A DNA stretch of 63,560 bases, the filler included, from Collodictyon triciliatum (Eukaryota): assembly GCA_043381765.1 (NCBI GenBank). It is 19 parts of 19 records of this genome, joined end to end, with 100 filler letters (N's around TTAATTAATTAA, not from the genome) between each part and the next. Parts side by side here need not be neighbours in the genome. Positions count along the whole stretch, not along the records: positions 23,990 to 27,306 come from JBHJMP010007484.1; 18 more parts are not named here. One strand, written 5' to 3'. Numbering within the stretch: the stretch's first letter is position 1; each line of letters begins with the position of its first letter. Both the position numbers and the translations under genes were made by a program. This document shows positions 19,780 to 53,133 of the stretch, piece after piece. The notes under the pieces were generated by a model. The model worked only from the letters and a program-made list of their open reading frames with translations. It had not been told where the DNA came from and did no database searches.

Positions 19780-20572
19780 TTGGGATATAGGGTTGCAGAA
19801 TAGATTCCCCTGTGGCATCCACAAGTCTTTGTTCATTTAAGAATAAAGGTGCACATCTACATACAAGCACATACCCCTTTTTGTTCCCGTCCATCCGCTG
19901 CGCAAACAGAGGCACCAACAGACTCTGAACAAGGCGACAGGCAGGAACCGTTTGGGAAGGAAACGCCACGGAGCTGCTTCTGTGTCTTGTGGTGTGCGGT
20001 GTGCGCCTCCCCAAAATGGAATTTCAAATTCAAACATTTGATTTATTTTATTTTATTTTAACATTTTGATTTTACAAAAATTCAAATGGGGGTCGTTCGG
20101 CGTCGGATTGGATAAAGCCAGGATAGCCGCGGGGTAAATTTACACGGCAGCGCCTCTGTGTTGTGGGAGGCCAGCGCATCTCAAGAACAAATGTTATTTT
20201 TCTACTACTGTTATTGCCTATTGTTTGTATTTTTCATCTTTTTCGTCTTTTTTTATATTTTTTATATTTTTTTATCTTTTTTTATCTTTTTTTATCTTTT
20301 TTTATCTTTTTTATCTTTTTTTTATCTTTTTTTATCTTTTTTTATCTTTTTTTTATCTTTTTTATCTTTTTTTATCTTTTTTATTTTTTTATCTTTTTTA
20401 TTTTTATCTTTTTTTATCTTTTTTTATCTTTTTTATCTTTTTTATCTTTTTTATCTTTTTTATCTTTTTTATNNNNNNNNNNNNNNNNNNNNNNNNNNNN
20501 NNNNNNNNNNNNNNNNTTAATTAATTAANNNNNNNNNNNNNNNNNNNNNNNNNNNNNNNNNNNNNNNNNNNN

Positions 20573-21186
20573 CAAAAGCTGGCAAAGTCTCCCAACAATG
20601 CACACTTTGCAGCAACGGTGATGAATCCATTGAGCACACATTTGTGCAATGTCCCTTCGCTCAAAACCTGCGCGAAACAGCCGGTGAGATTCTTCGACTG
20701 ACACTCAAGACGGCTGCGGCTGTTGGCCCAATCCAGGCGATATTTGGGCCTCTGCAACAGCTGCGTCCAGAGGCAAAAACATTCTGGGCAGTGACGCGAG
20801 GCCATTTGCTATGGACAATGTGGATAGCGCGCATATACTCACGCAAAGCAAGACTCAACAACCAGACACCAATTCCTGATAATAGACTGAATGACACCAT
20901 ACAAATCTCTTTCCTCAATAGCTTTCTTCGCCACCTGCACGTTCTCTACTACTCAGACCCCGTGAGAAGAGACATGTGGAAAGAGGCTGAGAAGGGTATT
21001 AAACCTCGCCTTGTATCTCTTATGCAAGCACAAGACCCAGGCTACAGGCCAAACCGCAGGATGCCATTGCTGATTACCGACTACTTCTCCGCCACCCGGC
21101 CACCAAGTAGCGTTCATGAAACGACGGCTAGCGAACCAAAGCCAGCATCTCCACCATCTTGCACAAATTGAAAGGAAGAATAAAAT
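20573..21186 (+). mobile_element. L1/Tx1-like non-LTR retrotransposon ORF2 C-terminus and 3' end (subfamily A)
   Basis: CCHC zinc knuckle CTLCSNGDESIEHTFVQCPFA followed by LLWTMWIAR, as in the zf-RVT region of L1-clade ORF2. Stop at 21171, AATAAA at 21179-21184. Other copies occur in this window. Confidence 0.88.
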
Positions 21187-21256: not shown

Positions 21257-23377
21257 TCATTTAGTTTGCTCCACTCTGACGTTTTCGGTGATGAAAAGAA
21301 TGCGTTTGTAGTTCTCTCGATAGCTCCAAAAAAACCGCGTCCCAAAGGCAGAGACCGATAAAAGAGACGAAGACAGATTGATTCGAGATGACATGAACTC
21401 ATATCCAAAAATAGAAAAAATACGATCGTTTGAGAATGTAGTTCCAATATTCATTTTACACAAAACCGCCATCACAAGTGACCAAATGCTTACAAGTAGT
21501 GCAAAGTTTGATGCCTTCCTCGCTTTAATGTTGAGGGTATCGATCATAATGCACCATATAAGAGAAATACCGGTGAATATCCAAAATATTATTCTAACAT
21601 CCCACCCGCACAAGACACCGGATGAGAAAAGAATCCTTAATATTAAAAACATAACGTACCAGTAGTCAAATGACCGCACCATGTGGCGAAGCATGGTGAT
21701 ATTGGACGTAGTAATCATTTGAGTAGTCATAAAAACAACACCTGCCAATGAAATGATGTATGACAGAGTATCATACGATGGTCCAAAGTCAACCCCAACG
21801 GCAGATATGAATGAAAATACGGGTGACAGGATACCAAGTGCGAATCCCAGGAAATGGTATGCCTTAGACTTTAGTATCATCGTGGCTACAGGATACTTTT
21901 TCGTAATCACCTTGTGAAATAATGTGTTCCTTGTATCGTACTCGATGATTTTGCTCTCCATGATTCCAAATGTAAGGTGTTTATCGGGGTTGATAGCACT
22001 CAGGACCTCCGACTCTATTTTATTATCACTCTTTTCTTGGCCTTCTTGCCGCTCTTTCGCGTCTGTCTCTTGCAATTTCGGTGTCCGCTTTGATTTGTCG
22101 TCTTCTTCGTATGTCTGTTTCGAAAGACGTCCGAATAATAGACTGGTAGATTTCTGGCTGAAACTGATACTTTTGCTGCTACCAACACCAGTATTCTGTA
22201 CTCTGGATAGTTGATATTTAGTCCCATGTCTTTTTTTACGGATATGTCGCTCATCAATCTCATAAAAATGCGATAAAAATGCTATCGTTGTTGGTTTCTT
22301 TCGTATCACATGTGTGTAAAAAATACGAAGGAGATACACAATAATGGTTGTGAGATTATCAAGAGCCTGGAGCCTCACATCCATTATCTCAATTCCACTG
22401 CTACCGTGATACATCTTTTCGGTTTGCAAATCTGCCAACCGGAATAAAATGGCCCCAAATATTGGTACGTATGCTAAAATGCCACATATAAGAGATATTT
22501 TCATCTGCTTAAGGTGCTTCGCAGCATGGGCGTCATACAATACAAGAAGGAGAAAAAGGCTCATGAATGAATTAAATGCTGCTAGAAGGTTTGTGACGTT
22601 TACACCATATAGAAGGACTAAGCAGATATGAAAGGAGACTACATTGTAGATGGTAAACCAGAAGTTGAACGACCTTGCAAGCTCTTTGACGATTCCTACT
22701 CGGATGAACAATACATGGTGCAAGAAAAAGTTGACTGTGCAAAAAATCTGAAGAGGTATGTATATCTCCGATAAGATAAGTTGATAACCGAAGCATATGC
22801 ACAGACAGTTAAGAGAACAAATGAACCAAATCATTAAGATGCAAACAGAGGTTATGATATTTTTGTAGATAGTAGATAACGCTTCGGAAAGCTTTCTGTT
22901 CCTCACTAGCAAAGAAAAGACTGTGTTTCGTCTTTCTATCAACTTTATCCTTTCTTTGAGAACCAACTTGACAACTAAAGGGTTGTGCCTCGTTGCACTC
23001 AGTTCTTCCCGGTGCAAAACTTGCTCTTCGCTCTCAGACATTGCGATAGCTTGAGATGTAATTGAATTGCGCTCTAAATTGTGTGAGGTGGATGGGCTTG
23101 TGTCAGCCATTTGTATCTCATCGGTTCCATCCGTTTGACTACGCGATTCGACAACCTCTAGATGATGCGAGACATGGTTCGTTGCAATAGCGTCCAACGA
23201 ATGACTATGCGAGAATGCTGGGTCCAAGCAAGAGTGGGTGATTTTCTGGGCCTCAGGGATACTTTCATAGGTGGGTGTATGTAAGGAGAGTGTACTGATG
23301 GAGTGAACCGCATGGTTTTGTGTCGTGCTGTCTGCCGGTTTTTCGACGTCGAGGTCTTCGATCAGCTCTGAATTCAT
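21257..23377 (-). CDS. Intronless polytopic membrane protein of about 700 aa with an internally duplicated TM module
   Basis: Long open frame (first ATG 23377; the ORF track starts at TTG 23458). Two hydrophobic halves carry the matching motifs IVKELARSFNFWFTIYN and MLRHMVRSFDYWYVMF. Confidence 0.8.
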   Translation of the reverse strand: MNSELIEDLDVEKPADSTTQNHAVHSISTLSLHTPTYESIPEAQKITHSCLDPAFSHSHSLDAIATNHVSHHLEVVESRSQTDGTDEIQMADTSPSTSHNLERNSITSQAIAMSESEEQVLHREELSATRHNPLVVKLVLKERIKLIERRNTVFSLLVRNRKLSEALSTIYKNIITSVCILMIWFICSLNCLCICFGYQLILSEIYIPLQIFCTVNFFLHHVLFIRVGIVKELARSFNFWFTIYNVVSFHICLVLLYGVNVTNLLAAFNSFMSLFLLLVLYDAHAAKHLKQMKISLICGILAYVPIFGAILFRLADLQTEKMYHGSSGIEIMDVRLQALDNLTTIIVYLLRIFYTHVIRKKPTTIAFLSHFYEIDERHIRKKRHGTKYQLSRVQNTGVGSSKSISFSQKSTSLLFGRLSKQTYEEDDKSKRTPKLQETDAKERQEGQEKSDNKIESEVLSAINPDKHLTFGIMESKIIEYDTRNTLFHKVITKKYPVATMILKSKAYHFLGFALGILSPVFSFISAVGVDFGPSYDTLSYIISLAGVVFMTTQMITTSNITMLRHMVRSFDYWYVMFLILRILFSSGVLCGWDVRIIFWIFTGISLIWCIMIDTLNIKARKASNFALLVSIWSLVMAVLCKMNIGTTFSNDRIFSIFGYEFMSSRINLSSSLLSVSAFGTRFFWSYRENYKRILFITENVRVEQTK

Positions 23378-23989
23378 GTCTGAAGAACCTTCTTTGCTGC
23401 GTTTCCTTGGAGTCCTATCATGTATTAATGTCGATGTTCTGGAGTGACGTATTTTCAAGTGTCGTTGGGCGTGGGTAGGGACTCGTCTCCTGTCTTATTA
23501 AGCCTTTTTATCCTTTATTTTATTTTAGCTGCTGTTGTCTTTCAAGATCGTATTTTGTGGGGGTGAAAAAAAAAAAGGAAAAGGGGAAAAAAAGGGCATA
23601 CCGAAAATGGACTCTTTCAATAGGAAATATCTCCCCATGTCAAAAAGTTTGAAAGTGGTAAACTAGCCATCCGCTCCAGTGCTTGTAAAAAGAGGGGGAA
23701 AAACGTCCAAAAGCAAAGAGCAATAGGGGTGTATGTATTGTATGAACAACACGAAGATAGTCGACAATTTTCTGAAGCGGCGTACATACGCACATACATG
23801 CATACATACATACATACATACATACATACATACATACATACATACATACATACATACATACATACATACATACATACATACATACATACNNNNNNNNNNN
23901 NNNNNNNNNNNNNNNNNNNNNNNNNNNNNNNNNTTAATTAATTAANNNNNNNNNNNNNNNNNNNNNNNNNNNNNNNNNNNNNNNNNNNN

Positions 23990-24148
23990 TGCTTATTCCT
24001 TACTTAATGGACTGATATTGTCTACTAGAAGGGGTATACAATCTTTCGATTGGCAAACCTTGTCCGTTAGCATCCAAAGTCTCGCCACTTTTTTCACAAA
24101 GATTGTGTAGTGGTGAACACTGCCAGGAAAGACCTAACAGCCTATTTT
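23990..24148 (-). ncRNA. Candidate Fanzor omega-RNA scaffold / transposon right end
   Basis: Lies directly 3' of the Fanzor stop. Outer stem 24098-24109 pairs with 24035-24046 (11 of 12 bp). Inner stem 24075-24087 pairs with 24051-24062 (G-U pairs, one bulge). CTAG|T follows at 24028-24024. The RNA role is inferred from position only. Confidence 0.5.
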
Positions 24149-26130
24149 TTAAGAGGGAGGTGTATGCATTTTTTGAAGGATTAAAAGAACTTTCTTGAGT
24201 ATATTTTTAGCGCTGTTAAAGTCCCTTGTCAAGAATACACTTTGTTTGCTTTTTGAGCAATTGGATTATTAACATATGATACATCTATACACACTTTTTT
24301 GAATTTCCTTTCAGTTTCATATATTCCAGTTCTTTTTCGCAGTTACAACACATCTCGAGGTTCTAAAATTTATCTACACTAAGTGTTTCAAAACGTTTAG
24401 ATAGTATTTTTCGTAATCCCCTTCCGATTGTTGGCATAGAATGCTTCATCGGAGATTTTCTGCTTTAGTTTCCATACGCAAGTACAGCATCCTCGCCAAA
24501 TGTCTTTTCGATTCGGTCCATAAACAACTGTTCACTTCTTTTTGTATTAACATACTGTATCCATCTCATCTTTCGAAAAGTCACTTGTTCATAAAATCTG
24601 GAAAATATTATGTGGTATCTTGATTTCATAGATACATATTCCCGAAATTTTTTTTTTCATAATCGACTGTGCATGAATTATGTTTTCTCAGTTCTGTCTC
24701 TAATCGATTAAAGATACTCTTGATGTCTCAAACTTTTGTTCTCTTCAAAAGTCATGGCACCAGAAGAAACAGCACTTTGTAAATCTGTTGCCATGTATAT
24801 CCCTAAAGCATTGTACTTTACTTTCTTCTCGCGCAAGAGAATTTTGTGATTTTTAAGAGATTTGCTATCATGTCTTGTTTGGTGTGTCGTGTAGCGTAAT
24901 TACTTACCTGTCTCGCCACCATGTAAACCATATTAAACTCGCCTGCGTCTACTCCAACTATTTTTTTTTTTGTCGCTAATAAAGATAACTGCTCTTCGGA
25001 AAGTTCATCTATATAAACATATTCTTGGTTTTTTATTTTTGATTATATTTGAATTTTGAATTTGAAAAACCTTCTTTTTCAAACAATGATGACACCGCCA
25101 ACCCGTCTGTTTGTATCGTGTATTTAAAATTGTAGTCTATTTGATGAAAGACCCTCTTCTTCATTTCAAAGAAATTATCCCCTGGGGTCTCTTACCATCC
25201 TGATCTATACCTCATTAATAATGATTTTCCAGATGATACTAATACCTATCAAACATGCAGTATCTAGAGTAATATGACATGGTATATTGTTAGTTCTTAT
25301 AGAGATTGGTTGAAACAGTTTGGTTCCAATGTCCTCAAAAAATGTGATTCATGTAAATCAGACGTGGAATGTACTTATTTGAATTGACTTTGACGCCATA
25401 TTCGATACCTTTTTCAATACCGCTGGGAATGATACGATGCAAATGCGTTGCAGCCCATCTTTTATATTGTTCCAGTATTTCGAGCTTCTTGTAGATGGCT
25501 TTTTTTTTTCAACTTTCGAAGCTCTGCCTTTTTAATAGCATCCGTAATATTCTCATCTTTAGGAACTGTTTGATTTATAAAGCGCAGTAACCTCTTTACA
25601 GAATGTTCCTTATGTTATTATGATAAGTTTTTTTTTTCCTTTATTCGTGTTATTATGATAAGTTAACATTTGCTTCGCCAAGTACGGCAATACATGAGAC
25701 AGTCCAACCAACGGAAAGCGTTATTCTCTGGACAAAAGGAATCGAAAATCATTGAGATAAAAAGCCATCATGTCATTTCTCATTTCTGGTATCATTTTTT
25801 TTTAAAACTTGCGGGTCTATCTTGTGAAGCTACTCCGACTGCCTTTAAAGCATACAAAAAACATTTCATCGATTGTTGAGAGCTATTGTGATTTCAATAT
25901 GTAACATCTTGCAAACAGATAAGTGTCGGTAACCAAATTATGACACAATAAAGCCGTATCGTTGATTTTATCATAGTCATCCGGATTCTCTACAATCGAC
26001 TTTAGAGATGTTTTCACATTTCGATAGTCTGGCTTTACAGACTTTAGATTCTCAGATTCAAGACGTTTTCTTTTCTTCGTCTGAAAGTCTTTGTTTTACT
26101 TTTTTTTTTCCAGAAAACTACCGAGTTTTC
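24149..26130 (-). pseudogene. Degenerate Fanzor1-type (TnpB-derived RuvC) nuclease gene, about 650 codons, intronless
   Basis: Colinear motifs across frameshifts and stops: VKTSLKSIV..KINDTALLCHNLVTDTYLFARCYIL; LPYLAKQMLTYHNN; LFQPISIRTNNIPCHITLDTACLI; YTIQTDGLAVSSLF; RuvC-I IVGVDAGEFNMVY (about 24923-24962); FRKMRWIQYVNTKRSEQLFMDRIEKTFGEDAVLAYGN; PTIGRGLRKILSKRF; RuvC-II VDKF/RTS; CCNC..CIIC zinc finger; RuvC-III TRDFNSAKNI (about 24200-24230). Confidence 0.9.
25630..25647 (-). mobile_element. 18-nt LINE subfamily B stub with perfect 17-bp TSD inside the Fanzor gene
   Basis: Insert cgaataaaggaaaaaaaa matches the LINE end at 43500-43519. It is flanked by tgttattatgataagtt at 25613-25629 and 25648-25664. 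Confidence 0.82.
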
Positions 26131-26966
26131 AATTTTAATAAAACTTTAGTCAATTAGTCAATTTAATATAAAAACAACTGCACAAAATCAATTTATGTAA
26201 AATTAAGCATCTACCGAGACTCTCAAAATGTGCACATTGTGGCAAACAGACACAAAAAATTTTTTTACAAGTGATTTGAGATAAAACGCAGATAGCCGAT
26301 TCGGAGAGTTCGAAAGGACAGCCGTGTAGTCATTGCGACTGAAATTCAAGATATTGACCCCAAACGACATGATTACTGCCGCAAGTGTGGATAGTATGCT
26401 TTTTTGAAATGCATGTTTGGTGGCAGGTTTATAAGGTGGGTTCTGTCTGGGCTAGGCAAGAGCTTATTTGTATTTTTGAATTTTAATGTATAGTGATATT
26501 ATATAAATGAGAAATAAAGTATAAATTGATTATAGGAATAGAATGAGATTATGATGTATTTTTAACCTTATTATACATATTAAATATACTATTATATTAT
26601 TCAATTTGCTTCTTGGATTCATCAAAGTTCCTGCTTTTGTCAATTCAGATTTAATTCGATGGTTGTCTGCAATAAACTGCTATATATGTGGGTACACTTT
26701 CGTTGTATAAAAAGTGTTTTGCTTTGAAAGGGTAAACCACGTTCGTCACAACCTTTGTAATGAAGTTTATACATTTACAGGCTGGATGAGACTGAAGAAA
26801 AAAGAAAGGACAGAGAAAAGAAAAAAGGAAAAGAGAAAAAGAGAAACAGATGAATCAAAGCAACTAATGCTGAACACTATATTCATAATTATCTTGCTGT
26901 CCGTGGGTCGGTGGCTAGAGCTCGATAAGTTTTTTATTACCCATTATTATTATTATTGTTATTATT

Positions 26967-27039
26967 GCAAACGATGGCTAGCGAACCAAAGCCAACATCC
27001 CCACTATCCTGCACAAAATTGAAAGGAAGAATAAAAAAA
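26967..27039 (+). mobile_element. 5'-truncated LINE subfamily A stub inside a (TTA)n tract
   Basis: gcaaacgatggctagcgaaccaaagcc...tgaaaggaagaataaaaaaa matches about 21118-21185, with (TTA)n on both sides. Confidence 0.9.
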
Positions 27040-27306
27040 TTATTATTATTATTATTATTATTACTATTACTATTTCAAAGAGCTCGCTCTGTCTTATCAG
27101 TAGTTTGTTGTACTCACGGGTCGGTGGCAGCTGGTGTCTTGGTCATCGGCGTGTCTCTGTGCATAACCTGTGTTGTAAAGGGATGTGGTAAAGTGACTTT
27201 TTCGCTATCTGCGTTGGCTGCGTCGGCCTTCTCAGTTTGCGTACGATCAGTAAGCATTCATTGGGACAGGGCTGTGGCGCCGGTCTCTTCCTTCTCAGGA
27301 TCGCTC
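27040..27306 (-). repeat. Unclassified interspersed repeat 'C' ending in a (TAA)n tail
   Basis: Shares tttcaaagagcYcgctc..tcttat..ttgttgtactcacggg and cagggctgYggcgccggtctc..cttctcRggatc with 43520-43640. Confidence 0.75.
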
Positions 27307-28304
27307 NNNNNNNNNNNNNNNNNNNNNNNNNNNNNNNNNNNNNNNNNNNNTTAATTAATTAANNNNNNNNNNNNNNNNNNNNNNNNNNNNNNNNNNNNNN
27401 NNNNNNTCTTGCAAATGCTGTCAAAACCGCTGTCCTTCTCCGTGAAACGAAAGACTTTGCGGCGATTAACGAAATCCACGTTCCATATATAATCATTCAC
27501 TGGATAGATTATTGACACATGCCATCACCAGAAAAGCTTGAATCCAAATCTCATCCTTTGCAGTCTTTACATGTATATCATTTATCTCGTATAGCGTATC
27601 TGATACCTTATTATTTTTCTACCGATGTATCTTGTGTTCTTGGGAATCAGGAGATGGCAAAAACTTTACACAGCATATAACTGCCATTCACTAATCTTCA
27701 CCAAGAAACCTCCCGCCCGCGCCTGTTACGCAGCCATCAGTCTTCTTCGTGATGCCCATGTTGATATGGAATGCATCGCCGTCCTCAATCTCAAGGAAAC
27801 ACGATCGCATCGACCAATGGAGAGCTAGCAAAAACTCATACAAAAACCAGAATTATAAAAAAAGAAATGTAAAAATGAAGATTTAGTGGCGTTGCAGATG
27901 CACTTCCTCCCTTAGCTAACGAATCTCAGTCTACCAAATAAGGTGTATTTCCACGAATCTTCAGTCTTTCCAGATCAAACGGATTTCTTCGATCAAGCAG
28001 AATCACAAACAAACAATCAAACAGGAAATCGCAGCAACTCACAAAGCAGGAAAGGCCTGAGATGAAGCAGACAGAATCTCTGCGTATATGTTTTCAAAGC
28101 AAGCGTGTTGTGAAGAGTCCCAAATAACAGCAGCATAAATACTCTCTTTGCTGCGCAGTGAAATACGCTGGAGAAGAAACTGATGTGGACTGCGTGGCCA
28201 ACCTCGGGCTTTCTCAGCAACTGTTCGAGCCGATCACCGGCAGCACACCGTGTCCTTTGAGGGATCTCGTCGAAATCATGGAAAAGAGTAAGAATTGAAT
28301 ATTT

Positions 28305-35274: not shown

Positions 35275-36267
35275 TTATTCAAGAAAAGAAGGCTTTGTCC
35301 AAGGAAACATAGATATCATAAAAGCGTCGATAGTAGCGACTTGTCTTTTCATCTGCTCCATGATAGCTTTCACTTGCTCATTATCCTTGTGTTGTTTCAG
35401 TTGAGCGTAAAGTTTTCTAATCTTCTTTCTACTGTACCCGTATTGAAAGATAACATAAGGAAGACCAAATATGACAATATAGCATATGGCTGTATCATAC
35501 TTTGGTAGGTGACCATCGACAAGTTCGATAATACCGATGATGAGGAAAGCAATGTCGATGACCAGTAAATTATATCCAATAAGAGCGACTTTTGCTTTAA
35601 TTATCTTCCTCATGAGGGGTGATAGGCCATCCAAGTACTCCAAAACATTCCCTTCGTTCATGAAGTGACTCTGCCAATCCTGCAACCAAGATATGTAATT
35701 CAGGTTGAAGGTAATCAGGACTTGCAGCCAAAACGCATTGAACCCAGACGACTGACTCATAAAGACAACCAAGATTGTGAATAGATTGATATTGCAATAG
35801 TTCATCACCGCGTATAGAATGCTGCGAATGAGCTCCCAAGTAGTTTTGGGTTTCTCTTCCTCTTCTTGTTGTTGAGCGGGGCCACTCCCAACAGAGGCAA
35901 CCGCGGCTTTATTGCGGTCCTTCAACAGTTGCAACGCAATGACAACAATCTCGATCAATATCTGAACCACAGCAAAAGCCACAGCCACTTTCGTCACACC
36001 CTCGTCCTTGTACGCCATGTAGAGGCCCAGCTGGAGACCTTCCAGGCCTATCAGCAAGACATACTGCAGCACAAGGCCGTCAAGCTGGCTGCGTATCACA
36101 TCACCCACCCCAAGACCAAAGAATATCCAGAAGAGGCCCAAGTAGCCCAATGAAGTGTCGAGATCCCCAACAACGACCATGATACTGAGCTGCTCCGCAA
36201 GGTTGATCAGACTCAGGATTTCCTCCCACGCCCAAAGCGGGATTCCGGTTAGTGCCTCCAAAGGCAT
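35275..36267 (-). CDS. Intronless multi-pass membrane protein of unknown function (about 330 aa)
   Basis: Open frame with about 7-8 hydrophobic segments. First ATG is at 36267 (MPLEALTGIPLW). No family recognised. Confidence 0.72.
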   Translation of the reverse strand: MPLEALTGIPLWAWEEILSLINLAEQLSIMVVVGDLDTSLGYLGLFWIFFGLGVGDVIRSQLDGLVLQYVLLIGLEGLQLGLYMAYKDEGVTKVAVAFAVVQILIEIVVIALQLLKDRNKAAVASVGSGPAQQQEEEEKPKTTWELIRSILYAVMNYCNINLFTILVVFMSQSSGFNAFWLQVLITFNLNYISWLQDWQSHFMNEGNVLEYLDGLSPLMRKIIKAKVALIGYNLLVIDIAFLIIGIIELVDGHLPKYDTAICYIVIFGLPYVIFQYGYSRKKIRKLYAQLKQHKDNEQVKAIMEQMKRQVATIDAFMISMFPWTKPSFLE

Positions 36268-36868
36268 GCGTAGGCAATCTGGTAGTAGTTTTTGCGTGTT
36301 TGGGGAGGGGTCTTTGCTTTTTCTTTTTCTGCTTGTGGACCTGGATGAAGGGAAAGTATACTTCAGTGGTTTTTTCTTGGCATGTATGCGTGTGTGTTTG
36401 TTTTCCACAAGCTCTACTTTAAGTATGGTCCGATACTCGTTTGCTGCTTATTTCAAAATCCAAAGGCAGGCACCAAACGATGGGCGAGGAATTTGATGGT
36501 GATACAGTTCATAAATCAAAGGTCATCGCAATTGACTCAAAGCAAATAATAAAAGCGAATGAAAAAGATGAAGAATAAAAAAAAAAAAAAAAAAAAAAAA
36601 AGTATAGGACATATTGTTTCCTACACAAAAAAAACANNNNNNNNNNNNNNNNNNNNNNNNNNNNNNNNNNNNNNNNNNNNTTAATTAATTAANNNNNNNN
36701 NNNNNNNNNNNNNNNNNNNNNNNNNNNNNNNNNNNNTTTTGTTTCTTTTTTGTTTCTTTTTTTCTTTCTTTTTCACTTCTCACTCACTCACTCACTCACT
36801 CACTCACTCACTCACTCACTCACCCACTCACCCACTCACTCACCCACTCACCCGACACCGCAGCAGAC

Positions 36869-39448
36869 ATGGACGCACGGCTTCATCCGCTGCTGCACCG
36901 GACGGGGCCACGACACGCGGAGGAGGCGGCGGCGGGGCTCGATCGCTGCGCCGGCACGCACGCGGATCGGGTGGCGGAGTGGCTGCCGGAGTTTGAGCTG
37001 CCGACGGGCGGGGCCGAGGGCGGGGTGGCGAAAGCGATGGAGGGGGCGGAGTGGGTGGTGCCTGTGGCTGCGGGGCTGACCCGCTTCACGGCGTACCGGG
37101 TCTTCCCGGCAGAGCCCCGCACGGCGCAGGTGGACTACGATCAGATCCAGCACGCGGCGTTCGTGTGGGAGTTGATCCGGGGGAGGGTGCGGCGGGGCGG
37201 CGGGGCGGATCGGCTGCAGGCTGTGCGCGGCTTCTGCGTGGCGCCGGGCCCTGCGCCGGACGGCCGCCTGTGGGTTCTGTGCGAGGCCGGGCCGCCCTTC
37301 ATCGCGCTCGACCGGCTGCTGCAGCTGGACAGGCTGGAGCCGCTCAACGTGCTGGGGCTGCTTGGCGAGCTGCTTGCGCTGGTCGACGACTTCCACGGGG
37401 CCGCCTGCGCGCTGCACCAGACCGCCGGGCTTTGGCTCGAGTCGCCTCTCGGGCTGCTCCTCACCACCGGCCGCATCCACGTCCGCACTTGTCCGCAGGG
37501 CGGCGTTGCGGTTTGGATCCCCTTTGCCACCCTCTCCCACACCCCGGATTATCTGCAGTCCCATCGCCATTGGTTCCCTTCCGACCACTATCTCGCCTCG
37601 GACCAAAGCTCCCATCTCGACAGCCTCCAGAGTATGCCGTCCTTTGGCCAGCTCTCCGCCTCCCTCGACCCGCTTCTTGTAACAAAGAAAAAACTCCAGG
37701 ACATGTTCTCGGTCGCCCGTATCCTGCGCAAGCTGCTCAACAAGTCGCAAGTCCCCAGCCGTCTGGTGCCCCTCTTCGAAAGGGTCATCGCTGACCTTCA
37801 CAAGTCCGCCACTGGGGATCTCAAAGATATCATCCTCATGGTTAAAGAGGCCGGAAACAGGAATCTACGAAGCATCACACCCCCCAAAGACCCATCTGAC
37901 TTGGTTTCGAGACAATTTGCCTCCATGGGATACCCTCCAGCAACACTCACAAAGTGGTACGAAGGCTTACTCTCTTTGGCCTCCCGAAAGCCAACCGAGG
38001 CTCTTTCAGCATGGAAGAACTGTCAGTTTTTGCCAAAAAGTATTATTCTGCCAACCTTGTCTCAGTACCTGCTTTTCTGTATGTATCCGCATGACAGTCC
38101 TCCACTCGATAAATGTCCTGTGTTGGCGCATTTGGCCCAAGTTCTCAACGCAGACGTGATTACCGAGGTTATGCCCACCCGCATACTCATCAGGAAGATC
38201 CATGAAGCTATCGCTCTAAAACACTCAAATGTGGCCACCCTTGTCCTGGTCTTGGGGGACTTGGTGGATTACTTTTATGGAAGCGCTGAAGTTGAACCAG
38301 CTAGATCACCAATACCAGTTCCTGGAACACCCAGCGTTTTGCGCCTTTGGGTACATGCAGAAGTTGCTCTCCGTAATGCTGGGAGGAATCCCCAGCTCGT
38401 GTCTGAGTTGCCCAGCCTTGCCCGTGCTTTACACGATGTGTTGGAACCAGAACGCACAAAAATCATCAAAGCTGATTGGCCTGTTCTCTACGACGTCCTG
38501 GCTCGTATCATTCAATGTCTCCCTTTTGATCCTTTAAATCGTCAAGACCAGAGACAGCCCGTAAGATACATTGAAAATCTCTACCGCTTGGCAATCCAAA
38601 TGGGTTATACCCCAGCCGCAACTCATCTCGCTCGCTTTCTCATCTACCAAGATGACAGAGTTCCGGGCTCGCTTCTCGCCCATGAAGAATATGACCTCTT
38701 CGTCTGGGCTGCATCTCGTGGGGAGCCTTACGCACAGAGTCAAATCATCCCACAACTTCATCAGGATTCATTGGATTACACACTCGAGGGGCAGCCAGCT
38801 TTATTTGGAAGATATCAACAACTTCTAGTGGATCTAATCGATAATGTCAGATCCTGCAACGACGCGGACGCGCTCTATTTGCTGGCTGTTTATTTGCATG
38901 GTGACAAAAGTCTCAGAGAGCGATTCGGAATCGACCACCGAGCAATTCTCAATATCTTGGAGAGAGCAACAAAGTCCTCTGGAGGCAACACTGGTGCGAT
39001 ATTCATGTTGCCTTTCTTCATCAATCATGAAGCAATAGGCCCTGACTTACGTGTTGGAGAGAATGAATTATTGGCCTTTTTCATGAATGCTTGGGGACGT
39101 GGGGTCGTTGAAGCCGCAATCCCAATAGCAAAACATCACTACCCAACCAACCCTGGTTCGGCCAAACTATGGCTTTCATACGCTGTTGCATACAACGTCC
39201 CATCCGCCTTCTTGCACATGGCGACTATCTGTGAAAGCCTCGGAGAAGAAAGAGAAGCCTTGGAATACTATAACGGCGGTGCAGTTCGCGGTATAGTGGA
39301 TTGCTTCTATCGCCTTGGTGTGGCACATGAAGTCGGCCAACTGGGTCTTCCCGTGGATAGGAGGGAAAGCTTAAAAAACTATCAACTTGCAGCGGCACGC
39401 AATCACCGCGGGGCTATTATCGCTCTGAGAAGGTTCTTTCAGATATAG
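36869..39448 (+). CDS. Intronless 859-aa protein with degenerate kinase-like N-terminus and C-terminal Sel1-like repeats
   Basis: Long ORF. Sel1-like EALEYYNGGAVRGIVDCFYRLGVAHEVGQLGLPVDRRESLKNYQLAAARNHRGA. Weak kinase-fold echoes (LQAVRGFC..LWVLCE; LQDMFSVARIL). Confidence 0.82.
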   Translation: MDARLHPLLHRTGPRHAEEAAAGLDRCAGTHADRVAEWLPEFELPTGGAEGGVAKAMEGAEWVVPVAAGLTRFTAYRVFPAEPRTAQVDYDQIQHAAFVWELIRGRVRRGGGADRLQAVRGFCVAPGPAPDGRLWVLCEAGPPFIALDRLLQLDRLEPLNVLGLLGELLALVDDFHGAACALHQTAGLWLESPLGLLLTTGRIHVRTCPQGGVAVWIPFATLSHTPDYLQSHRHWFPSDHYLASDQSSHLDSLQSMPSFGQLSASLDPLLVTKKKLQDMFSVARILRKLLNKSQVPSRLVPLFERVIADLHKSATGDLKDIILMVKEAGNRNLRSITPPKDPSDLVSRQFASMGYPPATLTKWYEGLLSLASRKPTEALSAWKNCQFLPKSIILPTLSQYLLFCMYPHDSPPLDKCPVLAHLAQVLNADVITEVMPTRILIRKIHEAIALKHSNVATLVLVLGDLVDYFYGSAEVEPARSPIPVPGTPSVLRLWVHAEVALRNAGRNPQLVSELPSLARALHDVLEPERTKIIKADWPVLYDVLARIIQCLPFDPLNRQDQRQPVRYIENLYRLAIQMGYTPAATHLARFLIYQDDRVPGSLLAHEEYDLFVWAASRGEPYAQSQIIPQLHQDSLDYTLEGQPALFGRYQQLLVDLIDNVRSCNDADALYLLAVYLHGDKSLRERFGIDHRAILNILERATKSSGGNTGAIFMLPFFINHEAIGPDLRVGENELLAFFMNAWGRGVVEAAIPIAKHHYPTNPGSAKLWLSYAVAYNVPSAFLHMATICESLGEEREALEYYNGGAVRGIVDCFYRLGVAHEVGQLGLPVDRRESLKNYQLAAARNHRGAIIALRRFFQI

Positions 39449-50085: not shown

Positions 50086-50730
50086 CAACTTAAGGTCACG
50101 GCTTCTCTACTGAGCAGAGATTTTAGAAAGAAAAAAAAGAAGAAAAATAGGTGAAAATGAAAAGGGAAACTAGAGTGGGGACTAACATGGGTTACCTAGC
50201 CTGCCACCACAATAACTGAAACTTTCCCTGATACATGTCTCTTTGCAGAACACTACATACACAACATATGTATTTTGCTTAAACCTACATCTTGATTCTA
50301 TAACATCGTGTGCAAGTATGCATAATATGATTGCACAATTTTATTCTGGCGAGAGGCTTTTCTTTCAAATCATCATCTTCCACCACCATGTCCTTCTACT
50401 ACCGTTAAAATTTTGAAAATAAGGAGGGGCATTGAATCTGCTTCCCAACTATTGAAACATTTAAGTTGATGCGAAAATGATATCATCTCCGGAAAAGAGT
50501 CTAGTCTAGTATCTCATTCACTCACTTTTTTCTTTGATGCTACACTCTCATAATACACCTTGTAAAATTGGCCTGCTATGATACTCAATGCAATATGCTC
50601 CACAAAATAGTTTTGTAGTCCTGATTCATCTCGGCATGGCCAAACGCAATATTGATAAACCCCCAAGTAAGGTGAAGGAAAACATTCTGGCAACACATGA
50701 TGATGCGATTCCCCAGAGTTCCTCTCAAGT

Positions 50731-53133
50731 ATGTCATATACGGGTGCCATAAACGTATCTTACACTTCATTTTTCCTTGAATATTTCTGGAGGTATCATG
50801 AAAACTTCACACAGCAATCATACTCTTTACATACCAATCACCTCCTCTCCCTCTCCCAGCTCTCAAATATATTTATCATGGGCATACTTATCACAGTACT
50901 AATCGAAAAACTAATTAAACAGACATCTATCCTGGATAATAGCCTGGAAAAAAATTTTAAATCCAAAAGAGGTGTCAAAGATAATTCTCCCATAGCATAT
51001 CAAAGCACCGATACAGAGGATATCGCAGTATCGCACACTAAGAAGCAACGGCATCAAGATCTGATGAGAAACTGGAAAACCAGTCTTACCATCCATACAT
51101 CTGTCGCTGAAGAAAATATACATATAGATGGAGCCTGGTATTCCACTACAACAACATCTCAAGTTCTGCCTGAAGTTACTGCCAACGAATCGGAAAAGAC
51201 CCTGGAAGATATGGCATTTTCCTGCACAAGCGAAGTGTCAAAGTGCGTACACCCTCAGTATATCGAACCGAGCTTTTCAAGACCACGGGATTATAGAAAA
51301 ACGACGGATTTGTCGACATGTGGCTCGAGTAAAGAAAGCACATGCACTTTGCACGAAGAACAATATACATCTGCAAAACGTTTGTCTAGTGGCGATAATG
51401 ACAGCACTGAAGATGATAATCAAACACCCCTTCATCAACAAACTAAGACATCTAGAAACCCTAGAAATTCCATCAGACAATTGCAAAAAACGAAGGCTCC
51501 GATTGGGGCGCCTCCACTACAAAAGAAACCAGCACAGATAGATCCCCTGATACCAGAAATATTTTCGTTTGCAAGCCAAGTTGTTTTTAAAGTTGAACGA
51601 TCCCCACTTTACAATGTGATTATTCGCGGTCGAAATATCACTCCATCATTTCGCCTATCTTTGACAATTCCAACACCATGCCATGCAACTTTTTTAGGTC
51701 AAACAGTATCCTTTCATCATGTCGTGGCAGCCAACAAGCAAGAATTGAAGGGCCTCATATCTGTAGTGTGCAAAAATTATACCTATTTCCAACGATTATT
51801 GATTGAAGATAAACTGCCTGTCGACGTGATCTGCACAATCAACCAAGAACGAACCATGTTTGCCGATTTTCAAAAGTTGAAAATCATAGATGTGAAGCTC
51901 GGTAATGACGTGAACATCCAATTTATTGCTTCGATCATGTACAACGGATATCGTTATGTCATATCAATATCAGAGCCTCATCAACTGTATGTATGTGCTC
52001 AATGCGAGCACGAAGAGATGACCACAGCAAAAATTATATGGGATGGGATTAATACTTCCATGTCCAGGCTAAATGAAACATCGCCAATACCTGAGGTCCT
52101 ATCAAGGATAAACAAAAGATGGGAGCAGCACTTTGGCCATAATTTTGCAGATTTGCAATCTTTCATATTTTTGTGCAGCTTAAATTCACACTCCAACACG
52201 CCAGCTGCAAAGACTCAAAACCCTACAGACTTTTCTATGGAGATGAATATCGTAGAATTTGTATCGGACCCGCACACACATCCCCGCCGATCGCCCTTAC
52301 CAAGTCCCAGACAAAAGAAAAAGATGTCGGTGGGCTTGTCAAAAGACACCCCATGGGATGACCCGCCCCAGAAGTCGAAACTCGATGCACCAACACAAAC
52401 CAGCTCATCTGACAAAGCCCTCGTATTATCAACCAACATTAGCGCATCAAATGGCAATTCTACCAACACACAATATTCAATGTCATGCCTAGATACCCCA
52501 CGAGCGTCTAATGGCCCATTCACCCACAGTGGCCTCAAACCAAACTCTCAAATAAATGGGGTTAGTCATATGGATTTGTGCCTTTCAGCTCCTTTGCTTA
52601 ACGAAAGATCTCTGAACGAACGACACACAGATGCAGATTCGACTAGTTACAATGCTGTGGGCTATGCTGGGTTATCTACAAGCCAGGAGTACTCTCAAAT
52701 ATCATTTTCTTCATTTCAGCGCGTTTGGGCTATCGTCTACGCTGCTGGAAAGGCTCTAGAACGAGACTGTGGTCTGGCCCAGTTATGGAGAGAGGGCTTT
52801 GTCCATTCATTTTGTTCAAAAGTCAAGGTCCATCACATACTACAAACCACAGCAAAGTTGACTTCAGGTGCGTTTCTGGTTAGATTCTCGGAGCGGTTCC
52901 CTGGATATTTGTACGTGTCCTTTGTTAACGACCGCAAGAAGATTAAAGACAGAAAAATTGAGTTGTCTTCAATTAGAAAACCAAAGGTTCTTGGAATTTT
53001 GAAGAAATATACATTTCTCGAATACATATTAAGGGCAAATGGCGAGCTATCAGAGAAACATGAGGCTCTGAGACTGCAGTCTGTTGTTGTAGATTACGAC
53101 TCAGAGCTTGATTCATACAAAACCCTGGATTGA
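50731..53133 (+). CDS. Intronless protein of up to 800 aa with C-terminal STAT-type linker-SH2 domain (true start may be a downstream ATG)
   Basis: ISFSSFQRVWAIVY...LAQLWREGFVHSFCSKVKVHHILQ...SGAFLVRFSERFPGYLYVSFV resembles the STAT linker-SH2 pattern LWxxGxIxGFxSK...GTFLLRFSE. Confidence 0.82.
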   Translation: MSYTGAINVSYTSFFLEYFWRYHENFTQQSYSLHTNHLLSLSQLSNIFIMGILITVLIEKLIKQTSILDNSLEKNFKSKRGVKDNSPIAYQSTDTEDIAVSHTKKQRHQDLMRNWKTSLTIHTSVAEENIHIDGAWYSTTTTSQVLPEVTANESEKTLEDMAFSCTSEVSKCVHPQYIEPSFSRPRDYRKTTDLSTCGSSKESTCTLHEEQYTSAKRLSSGDNDSTEDDNQTPLHQQTKTSRNPRNSIRQLQKTKAPIGAPPLQKKPAQIDPLIPEIFSFASQVVFKVERSPLYNVIIRGRNITPSFRLSLTIPTPCHATFLGQTVSFHHVVAANKQELKGLISVVCKNYTYFQRLLIEDKLPVDVICTINQERTMFADFQKLKIIDVKLGNDVNIQFIASIMYNGYRYVISISEPHQLYVCAQCEHEEMTTAKIIWDGINTSMSRLNETSPIPEVLSRINKRWEQHFGHNFADLQSFIFLCSLNSHSNTPAAKTQNPTDFSMEMNIVEFVSDPHTHPRRSPLPSPRQKKKMSVGLSKDTPWDDPPQKSKLDAPTQTSSSDKALVLSTNISASNGNSTNTQYSMSCLDTPRASNGPFTHSGLKPNSQINGVSHMDLCLSAPLLNERSLNERHTDADSTSYNAVGYAGLSTSQEYSQISFSSFQRVWAIVYAAGKALERDCGLAQLWREGFVHSFCSKVKVHHILQTTAKLTSGAFLVRFSERFPGYLYVSFVNDRKKIKDRKIELSSIRKPKVLGILKKYTFLEYILRANGELSEKHEALRLQSVVVDYDSELDSYKTLD

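Follow-up and report, generated by a model that had tools for sequence, protein, structure and literature searches.

The locus described here raises the question of whether a stretch of DNA missed by gene callers can be the remains of an RNA-guided nuclease gene of the Fanzor1 type and, if so, whether this gene is alive or dead and to what family it belonged. It lies on the minus strand of a window of 63,560 bases from Collodictyon triciliatum (assembly GCA_043381765.1), the window being the whole stretch of DNA that was analysed. This window consists of about 19 contigs of approximately 3.4 kb, joined by linkers of the form N44-TTAATTAATTAA-N44 (e.g., 23890-23989 and 27307-27406). Because the linkers separate contigs, features on different pieces are not genomic neighbours, and the genuine context of the locus is the 3.3-kb piece 23990-27306 only. 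Fanzor1 proteins form the branch of the TnpB family that occurs in eukaryotes and giant viruses; they are RuvC DNA endonucleases guided by an omega-RNA and are encoded by mobile elements. The analysis leads to the answer that positions 24158-26074 very probably hold a Fanzor1 gene copy that has no introns and is dead, a decayed member of a multi-copy family.

The coding remains are recognized by the order of their protein motifs. An earlier note on this DNA had read a series of motifs from the minus strand by eye, and all of them are present in the proposed order, spread over three frames: VKTSLKSIV, LPYLAKQM..HNN, FQPISIRTNNIPCHITLDTA, IQTDGLAVS, VGVDAG, FRKMRW..KRSE..FGEDAVLAYGN and PTIGRGLR, followed by VDKF, then RTS one base out of frame, CCNC...CIIC and TRDFNSAKNI. 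The same note had estimated an intronless run of about 650 codons. A frameshift-aware alignment to P0003, an intact relative of 634 residues, yields about 639 codons and requires no introns. In this alignment, the body of the pseudogene (24158-26074, minus strand) is colinear with residues 2-602 of P0003, with 265 of 578 positions identical (45.8%). This agreement far exceeds chance. The tblastn searches against the window reach expectation values (E) of 3.4e-40 for P0003 and 2e-47 for a second relative, P0002, with the matching pieces falling in three frames. The N-terminal half of the relic by itself matches residues 2-272 of P0003 at 6.9e-21.

The assignment to Fanzor1 was claimed before on the motif order, and it is upheld by three kinds of query, namely a fragment of the relic, the intact relative P0003 and a profile of the family, all of which match Fanzor1 proteins of solved structure. 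The fragment, P0001, is the longest single-frame stretch of the relic (24656-24288, minus strand; 123 residues with two stops written as X). Searched with phmmer against 1.84 billion proteins, it has 1214 relatives at E<=1e-3, of which 225 reach E<=1e-10 and the best 9e-34, and many of these proteins are 600-700 residues long with the matched region near residue 450. Within the PDB, the same fragment matches ParFz1 (2.3e-10), GtFz1 (6.9e-5) and SpuFz1 (0.039), and the fourth row at E<=1, with a value of 0.82, is noise. For P0003, the alignment with SpuFz1 (8GKH) spans residues 14-607 (9.2e-37), and ParFz1 and GtFz1 are the only other PDB matches. The profile A5, built from 30 diverse full-length relatives, matches ParFz1 (2.5e-95), SpuFz1 (1.3e-91) and GtFz1 (5.4e-75) nearly end to end, over positions 8-599. 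The best matches among solved structures are thus significant and belong to Fanzor1 rather than to an unrelated family.

A prokaryotic TnpB of the IS200/IS605 or IS607 type, present as contamination, or a Fanzor2 protein would share part of this likeness. The C-terminal zinc ribbon is common to TnpB and Cas12, and the corresponding family PF07282 (TNB), the only domain that Pfam recognizes in the relatives, is found in 16 of 30 relatives at E<=0.001; in a set of 12 relatives, 9 carry it at E<=0.01, three of them at or above the curated cut-off. One relative, P0012, also gives a sub-threshold match to the NCBIfam model guided_TnpB (4.9e-4; 19.5 bits, where the cut-off is 100). The likeness to such proteins is nevertheless confined to one end: after the three Fanzor1 entries, the next A5 matches are LaTranC (1.8e-4), Cas12m (0.093) and a transposase (0.17), and they cover only the last ~60 profile positions, the zinc-ribbon stretch, whereas the N-terminal half also aligns to ParFz1, SpuFz1 and GtFz1. 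No entry named Fanzor2 or ISDra2 TnpB appears at E<=1 in the PDB with either P0003 or A5. TnpB proteins are roughly 400 residues long, compared with ~640 here. The Fanzor1-specific glycine and glutamate described by Bao and Jurka (2013) are invariant in the family as well. The likeness is therefore near full length, includes the N-terminal half and exceeds that to Fanzor2 or TnpB, and an origin from either of the latter has a next to negligible probability. The clade of P0003 also carries the tag PF26935.1 (Pfam) in its source database.

The text of Bao and Jurka (2013) gives the signature of the Fanzor/TnpB superfamily as D-X(125,275)-[TS]-[TS]-X-X-[C4 zinc finger]-X(5,50)-RD. The relic retains it as a remnant: 196 codons separate the Asp from the Thr of R-T-S (24361-24359), and 15 codons separate the last Cys from RD. 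The signature is not continuous in one frame, as the TS pair becomes readable only after a one-base frame correction.

The catalytic site describes both the family of the locus and the loss of its function. Across the 30 relatives, E530, D581, G496, W498 and P373 are invariant and D372 is nearly so. Counted along the alignment, with an offset of 394 for the fusion to maltose-binding protein (MBP), residues D372, E530 and D581 of P0003 align with D383, E541 and D606 of SpuFz1. These three residues, together with N385, coordinate two Mg2+ ions in the cryo-electron microscopy structure (Saito 2023). Fanzors are described as using a relocated RuvC-II glutamate, i.e., a rearranged site (Jiang 2023), and Bao and Jurka (2013) name a Fanzor1-specific glycine (G500) and glutamate (E536), the latter extremely conserved. 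E530 corresponds both to the relocated glutamate of Jiang (2023) and to E536 of Bao and Jurka (2013).

In the relic, the RuvC-I motif VGVDAG (24941-24958, minus strand) keeps the Asp codon GAC at 24949-24947, aligned to SpuFz1 D383, and the RuvC-III motif TRDFNSAKNI (24200-24229, minus strand) keeps the GAC at 24223-24221, aligned to D606. The glycine at the canonical RuvC-II position is also retained (AYGN). The rearranged RuvC-II site (24356-24377, minus strand) reads V-D-K-F, followed by an extra T and by R-T-S out of frame by one base. The codon at 24371-24369 is AAA, for lysine, as the earlier note had stated, at the position that is Glu in all 30 relatives and aligns to SpuFz1 E541. The extra T directly after this codon creates a TAG, and two further compensating one-base changes flank R-T-S. 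The relocated glutamate is accordingly absent from the relic and present in the family, where G496 and E530 occur in 30 of 30 relatives and most sister copies carry Glu. The lysine marks the inactivation of this copy and is no sign of a different family.

Other parts of the protein are damaged as well. The residue after the RuvC-I Asp is Ala in place of the Pro (P373) found in 30 of 30 relatives. A TAA stop (24465-24467, minus strand) replaces the Trp (W498) of the motif YGxWS, which the alignment shows as Trp in all 30. The remnant of the C4 zinc ribbon of the TNB domain (24272-24350, minus strand) consists of CCNC at 24350-24339 and CIIC at 24283-24272; the frame changes once between the Cys pairs, and two TAA stops directly follow them. 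A repeat search detects a 35-bp tandem duplication (25613-25664, minus strand; 17-nt cores at 25613-25629 and 25648-25664), which breaks the frame within LPYLAKQM..HNN. This duplication is private to the relic, as in the contigs of other sequencing runs the joint 25612->25662 has 18 letters instead. At the N-terminal end, direct reading gives a basic cluster K-K-R-K-R (26063-26077, minus strand), and no in-frame ATG remains upstream of it. Fanzors are stated to have gained nuclear localisation signals (Jiang 2023), and by analogy with this statement the cluster, read by eye, is a possible signal of this kind.

The claim that the copy is dead stands on the count of such lesions: the frame changes 7-11 times and is interrupted by at least 12 stops, the ATG is missing, and a lysine takes the place of the catalytic Glu. 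The range depends on the reference. Compared with P0003 in the frameshift-aware alignment, the relic has 11 frame changes and 12 in-frame stops, three of these calls being uncertain, because the segment 24900-24660, common to the relic and P0002, is absent from P0003. A frame path free of any single reference, drawn from 1402 high-scoring segment pairs of 351 relatives, runs over 26107-24144 with the edges counted in, where it meets 16 stops and needs a minimum of 7 frame changes. A locus without an open frame and without an intact RuvC triad lacks what an active nuclease needs, and it is classified as a pseudogene.

Such a classification has to be weighed against the reading that the gene is alive and only looks damaged, through mistakes of sequencing or assembly in an unplaced contig that is small and of low quality. 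This contig belongs to a series of ~3.4-kb pieces joined by linkers, homopolymer runs of at least 6 bases (including A10 runs at 25509 and 24658) coincide with five of the 11 frame changes, and the contigs of other runs are unbroken at several lesions. The remaining damage is of another nature. Six frame changes lie away from homopolymers, the twelve in-frame stops are substitutions and not indels, and positions that are invariant in the relatives have changed (Lys for E530, a stop for W498, Ala for P373), so that neither the stops nor the replaced residues are explicable by homopolymer errors. The missing ATG and the 35-bp duplication point in the same direction. In addition, the related fragments P0116, P0020 and P0271 are broken at different places, and because these independent sister fragments are broken elsewhere, decay is characteristic of the family. 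Survival of the gene at this locus is thus very unlikely. An alternative genetic code of the ciliate type, in which TAA and TAG are read as Gln, was rejected: the frame changes persist under it, one stop is TGA, and at four stops the sister copies read Glu, Lys, Gln and Lys, hence not regularly Gln.

The dead gene copy is not alone. The contigs of four public sequencing runs (X1-X4, from three studies) were aligned at 80% likeness to 2151 bases of the locus. They cover it fully, with 327 contigs in X1, 65 in X2, 368 in X3 and 148 in X4. The X1 contigs are divided by likeness into 42 at 99% and above, 63 at 95-99%, 122 at 90-95% and 100 under 90%. The depth drops at both ends of the aligned stretch, and loose ends at 26146, 26148 and 26168, together with the drop in the bin 26138-26200, mark the approximate 5′ edge of the repeated unit (26146-26168, minus strand). 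At four of the 12 stops, the other copies mostly have a sense codon: CAG for TAG at 25885, AAA for TAA at 25804, GAA for TAA at 25723 and AAA for TAA at 25194. The lysine codon of the RuvC-II site is likewise mostly GAA (T>C at plus-strand position 24371), with a Glu depth of 72.1 out of 98.3 in X1, 85.9 out of 96 in X3 and 30.4 out of 30.4 in X4, and of 0 out of 3.14 in X2. The consensus of the loose ends at 24355, reverse-complemented by hand, reads V-D-E-F-R-T-S. The relic belongs, as one decayed copy, to a multi-copy family of a poorly sampled eukaryote.

The prediction that the relic points to a family is supported by these tens of variants, 80-99% alike and mostly carrying Glu, in four runs. 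As for the intact relatives that the note expected, the closest known fragments are also broken. The nearest database relatives are P0020 (72%), P0116 (68%) and P0002 (55%), along with P0271-P0273 and P0009, and all of them are fragments on metagenome contigs shorter than 1 kb. P0116, P0020 and P0271 change frame relative to the family path, which identifies them as open reading frame (ORF) calls on broken sister copies. A metagenome scan with P0001 alone found no relatives with flanks, and a scan with the alignment A4 found at least 500 relatives, of which 80 were kept. Because these 80 are only 39-49% identical to P0002, they represent the giant-virus clade and not the subfamily of the relic. 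No intact copy of this subfamily was seen among the database relatives, the contigs of other runs or the metagenome scan matches.

The intact relatives of the relic lead to viruses. P0003 has 1638 relatives at E<=1e-5, and all 120 listed come from metagenome-type sources, the only informative name among them being 'Transposase ... viral metagenome' (P0158). Five IMG/VR loci (L001-L004 and L006) encode a P0003-like protein with 49-88% identity on contigs of 57-254 kb, the 254-kb contig being labelled GVMAG. From 85 loci, 78 ORFs were recovered, and 68 of them are 565-641 residues long. The tree was obtained by a quick IQ-TREE search on 67 rows, namely the relic (X at 23 breaks), P0002, 48 representatives of 550-720 residues and 17 locus ORFs from contigs of at least 28 kb, with shorter ones excluded. 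The relic and P0002 group together (97 in the Shimodaira-Hasegawa-like approximate likelihood-ratio test, SH-aLRT), and this pair is sister (94) to the clade of P0003, L001-L004 and L006 (100). The nearest intact relatives of the relic are carried by giant viruses.

The sister position raises the possibility that the relic is no transposon remnant of the host but viral, either part of a giant-virus genome that had integrated or giant-virus DNA that was assembled together with that of the host. The closest intact relatives lie on giant-virus contigs (the 254-kb GVMAG and others of 57-173 kb), P0158 is named as viral metagenome, and viral and cellular Fanzor1 sequences are described as intermingled (Bao and Jurka 2013). 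The structure of the locus speaks for a different origin. The likeness among copies stops ~70-95 nt upstream of the ORF, and so an ORF-sized unit is repeated and not a viral region. Tens of diverged variants occur within single runs, and a heavily decayed gene is unexpected in a replicating virus. The identity to the viral clade is only ~46%, and the 34% GC of the contig matches the rest of the window. The 1.2-kb upstream flank contains no viral-looking ORF and carries simple repeats, as well as a short repeat common to other contigs. A viral origin of the locus is hence improbable.

Several points weigh against the reading of the locus as a dead member of a multi-copy Fanzor1 family, or limit it. 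The other eight of the 12 stops show no alternative among the 40 listed of 740 rows, and the copy number is uncalibrated, since the contigs come from other runs, possibly of other species. The damage is somewhat overstated, because the five frame changes at homopolymers could be sequencing errors. Neither Pfam nor NCBIfam finds anything on the relic's own fragments, P0001 included: on 11 separate fragments, Pfam gives nothing relevant, only a chance-level match to T6SS_Tle1-like_C (E 0.076). The family assignment therefore rests on the phmmer and profile matches to the solved Fanzor1 proteins. The tree is quick, midpoint-rooted and built without named Fanzor1a-d, Fanzor2 or TnpB outgroups. Finally, neither a guide-RNA remnant nor inverted repeats nor a target-site duplication could be demonstrated for the relic, and for this reason its status as a mobile element rests on copy number and homology. 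In the public sequencing runs, no run holds more than 0.10 of the sampled words of the exact locus and no RNA run is listed; the locus consequently lacks independent confirmation.

The ends of the element are better visible in the live relatives. Of 54 giant-virus and metagenome loci, 53 have a counterpart among the other loci that is similar in sequence directly downstream of the stop. The likeness ends 32-160 nt downstream in 40 of those 53, and the median over all 53 is 104 nt. The aligned tail is ~85 nt long and ends in GGTGTAA, beyond which the sequences are unrelated (e.g., L076:4673-4819 and L007:4691-4820). It includes a 7-bp stem overlapping the end of the ORF, which is 93.7% paired, compared with 78.2% in shuffles and 47-64% when slid. 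Double-change cells number 19 in this stem and 3.1 in shuffles, none of 500 shuffles being as high, and RNAalifold recovers 5 of its pairs, all with compensatory changes. Such a covarying and sharply bounded tail is a candidate omega-RNA scaffold and a candidate right end of the elements of the giant-virus clade. A second small hairpin is seen in the tail by eye only, as GCCG..CGGC in some loci and GGGA..TCCC in others.

The corresponding region of the relic is the 3′ flank to the end of the contig (23990-24157, minus strand), where an omega-RNA scaffold is expected and nothing is recognizable. The covariance model R1 of the relatives' tail finds nothing in 23990-24300, its best match anywhere in the window having an E of 0.35. 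The DNA likeness of the flank to the 3′ tails of the relatives is absent as well (best E 0.091), its fold is unremarkable (z -0.85), and an Rfam scan of the contig gives only a chance-level snoRNA match. A likeness of the flank to the relatives' TTTCACC...GGAAAAAGT block, noted by eye, was rejected, as the best match of the covariance model lies elsewhere. The absence of an omega-RNA is not established by these searches, because only 168 nt of contig follow the ORF and the divergence from the clade of the model is large. No inverted repeat links the presumed ends (score 18 compared with 16.1 +/- 2.2 in shuffles, 65 of 300 as high). The GtFz1, NlovFz2 and MmeFz2 loci are likewise without inverted repeats (Saito 2023).

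From these elements, the ancestor of the relic can be outlined. It encoded a protein of ~640 residues, in which a basic cluster at the N-terminus and a REC/WED-like N-terminal half were combined with a split RuvC domain. Its metal ligands were two Asp, those of DPG and RD, and the rearranged Glu of DE[FY]xTS, the C4 zinc ribbon lying between this Glu and the Asp of RD. By homology with the solved proteins, such a protein would bind an RNA made from the 3′ end of the element that encodes it and cut DNA matching the guide of this RNA, the cleavage by the RuvC site being presumably omega-RNA-guided and dependent on a target-adjacent motif (TAM). While the analysis shows the homology, the lesions, the multi-copy status and the sister position to a giant-virus clade, the RNA guidance, the nuclease activity of the ancestor and its mobility are inferred. 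The unit measures ~2 kb and consists essentially of this ORF alone, as in the Spu-1 element of Spizellomyces. The present copy is no longer able to yield a protein, having no start codon, a frame broken 7-11 times, at least 12 stops and a lysine at the catalytic Glu.

A broader possibility, held only tentatively, is that a compact Fanzor1 family (~2 kb, single-ORF, intronless) is active at high copy number in an unsampled protist lineage and has recently been exchanged with the giant viruses of this lineage. If this is true, intact genomic copies would supply a new nuclease of ~640 residues with its own omega-RNA. The host and virus would then provide a tangible example of the transfer of RNA-guided nucleases between giant viruses and the organisms they infect.

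The remainder of the window describes the genome from which the relic comes. The other pieces contain long intronless ORFs with eukaryotic domains, among them SH2, Kelch, Sel1, the C-terminal domain of CAF17 and zf-RVT (Pfam), and the best relative of the CAF17-like ORF is a protist transcriptome protein with 44% identity. The base composition of the window is ~35% GC, and the Fanzor contig is in line with it. On the basis of this composition, of the intronless ORFs with eukaryotic domains and of the distant best CAF17-like relative, the source genome is that of an AT-rich, intron-poor, poorly sampled eukaryote. No Rfam families or tRNAs were found across the window, no transposase was found on the 3.3-kb Fanzor contig, and the window holds no second Fanzor copy, only simple repeats being common to the locus and other pieces.

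Some features of these pieces can be noted separately. A 68-bp sequence in the flank on the Fanzor contig (26969-27036), bordered by (ATT)n runs, is 91% identical to 21119-21185 on the adjoining piece and resembles a short repeat dispersed in the host genome. The plus-strand ORF at 20521-21171 (216 residues) has a zf-RVT domain at 27.6 bits, with a cut-off of 27.5, and is probably a retroelement fragment. Two further ORFs are uninterrupted: one of 809 residues with a C-terminal SH2 domain (50704-53133, plus strand) and one of 745 residues without a Pfam match, hydrophobic by eye (21257-23494, minus strand). Positions 36001-38000 form a GC-rich island (54% compared with ~35% elsewhere), on a piece that carries a 919-residue ORF with a weak Sel1 repeat match and may be a contig of different origin.

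The significance of the locus is modest. The identity as a Fanzor1 relic of known type is correct but ordinary. As reported by Jiang (2023), Fanzor1 counts 3655 unique sequences and up to 122 copies per genome, and the relic itself matters little in a group whose diversity and partial copies are already well known. The locus was missed by gene callers, and therefore frameshift-aware searches are needed for a census of Fanzors in draft protist genomes. A multi-copy family with its closest live relatives in giant viruses constitutes a further data point on the intermingling of viral and host Fanzor1. The sharply bounded 3′ tail of the giant-virus clade, with its covarying stem, is a directly testable candidate omega-RNA.

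Compared with known systems, the relic stands closest to the clade of P0003, L001-L004 and L006, which shares the motif order, the length of ~634 residues and the lack of introns, at 45.8% identity over residues 2-602. The clade differs from the relic in its intact genes and in the structured ~85-nt 3′ tail, which was undetected in the relic, whereas the extra segment after RuvC-I is common to the subfamily of the relic and P0002 only. The second comparison is the Spu-1 element of Spizellomyces punctatus, a single-ORF unit of ~2.1 kb with 19 of 42 loci full length and 23 of 42 partial, 30-nt inverted repeats and an omega-RNA region of ~80 nt (Saito 2023). The relic resembles it as a multi-copy, single-ORF unit of ~2 kb, and the Mg2+ ligands of SpuFz1 align to its Asp, Lys and Asp. 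In contrast to SpuFz1, the relic is dead, its match through P0001 is distant (E 0.039), and the inverted repeats and omega-RNA of Spu-1 were not found in it. ParFz1 of Parasitella parasitica (9CF0) is the best direct PDB match of P0001, across FRKM..GN.S..GLR..DEF.TS..C..CE. It differs in being fungal and in having been solved with MBP fused to it, in a chain of 1259 residues; A5 matches it in two stretches, and it therefore has extra segments. The remaining systems are TnpB (IS200/IS605, IS607) and Cas12f, Cas12m and TranC, which have in common with the relic the RuvC domain, the C4 zinc ribbon (PF07282) and the signature D..[TS][TS]xx-C4..RD. Only the last ~60 residues are detectably similar, while the N-terminal half is specific to Fanzor1 and the RuvC-II glutamate of Fanzors is relocated (Jiang 2023).

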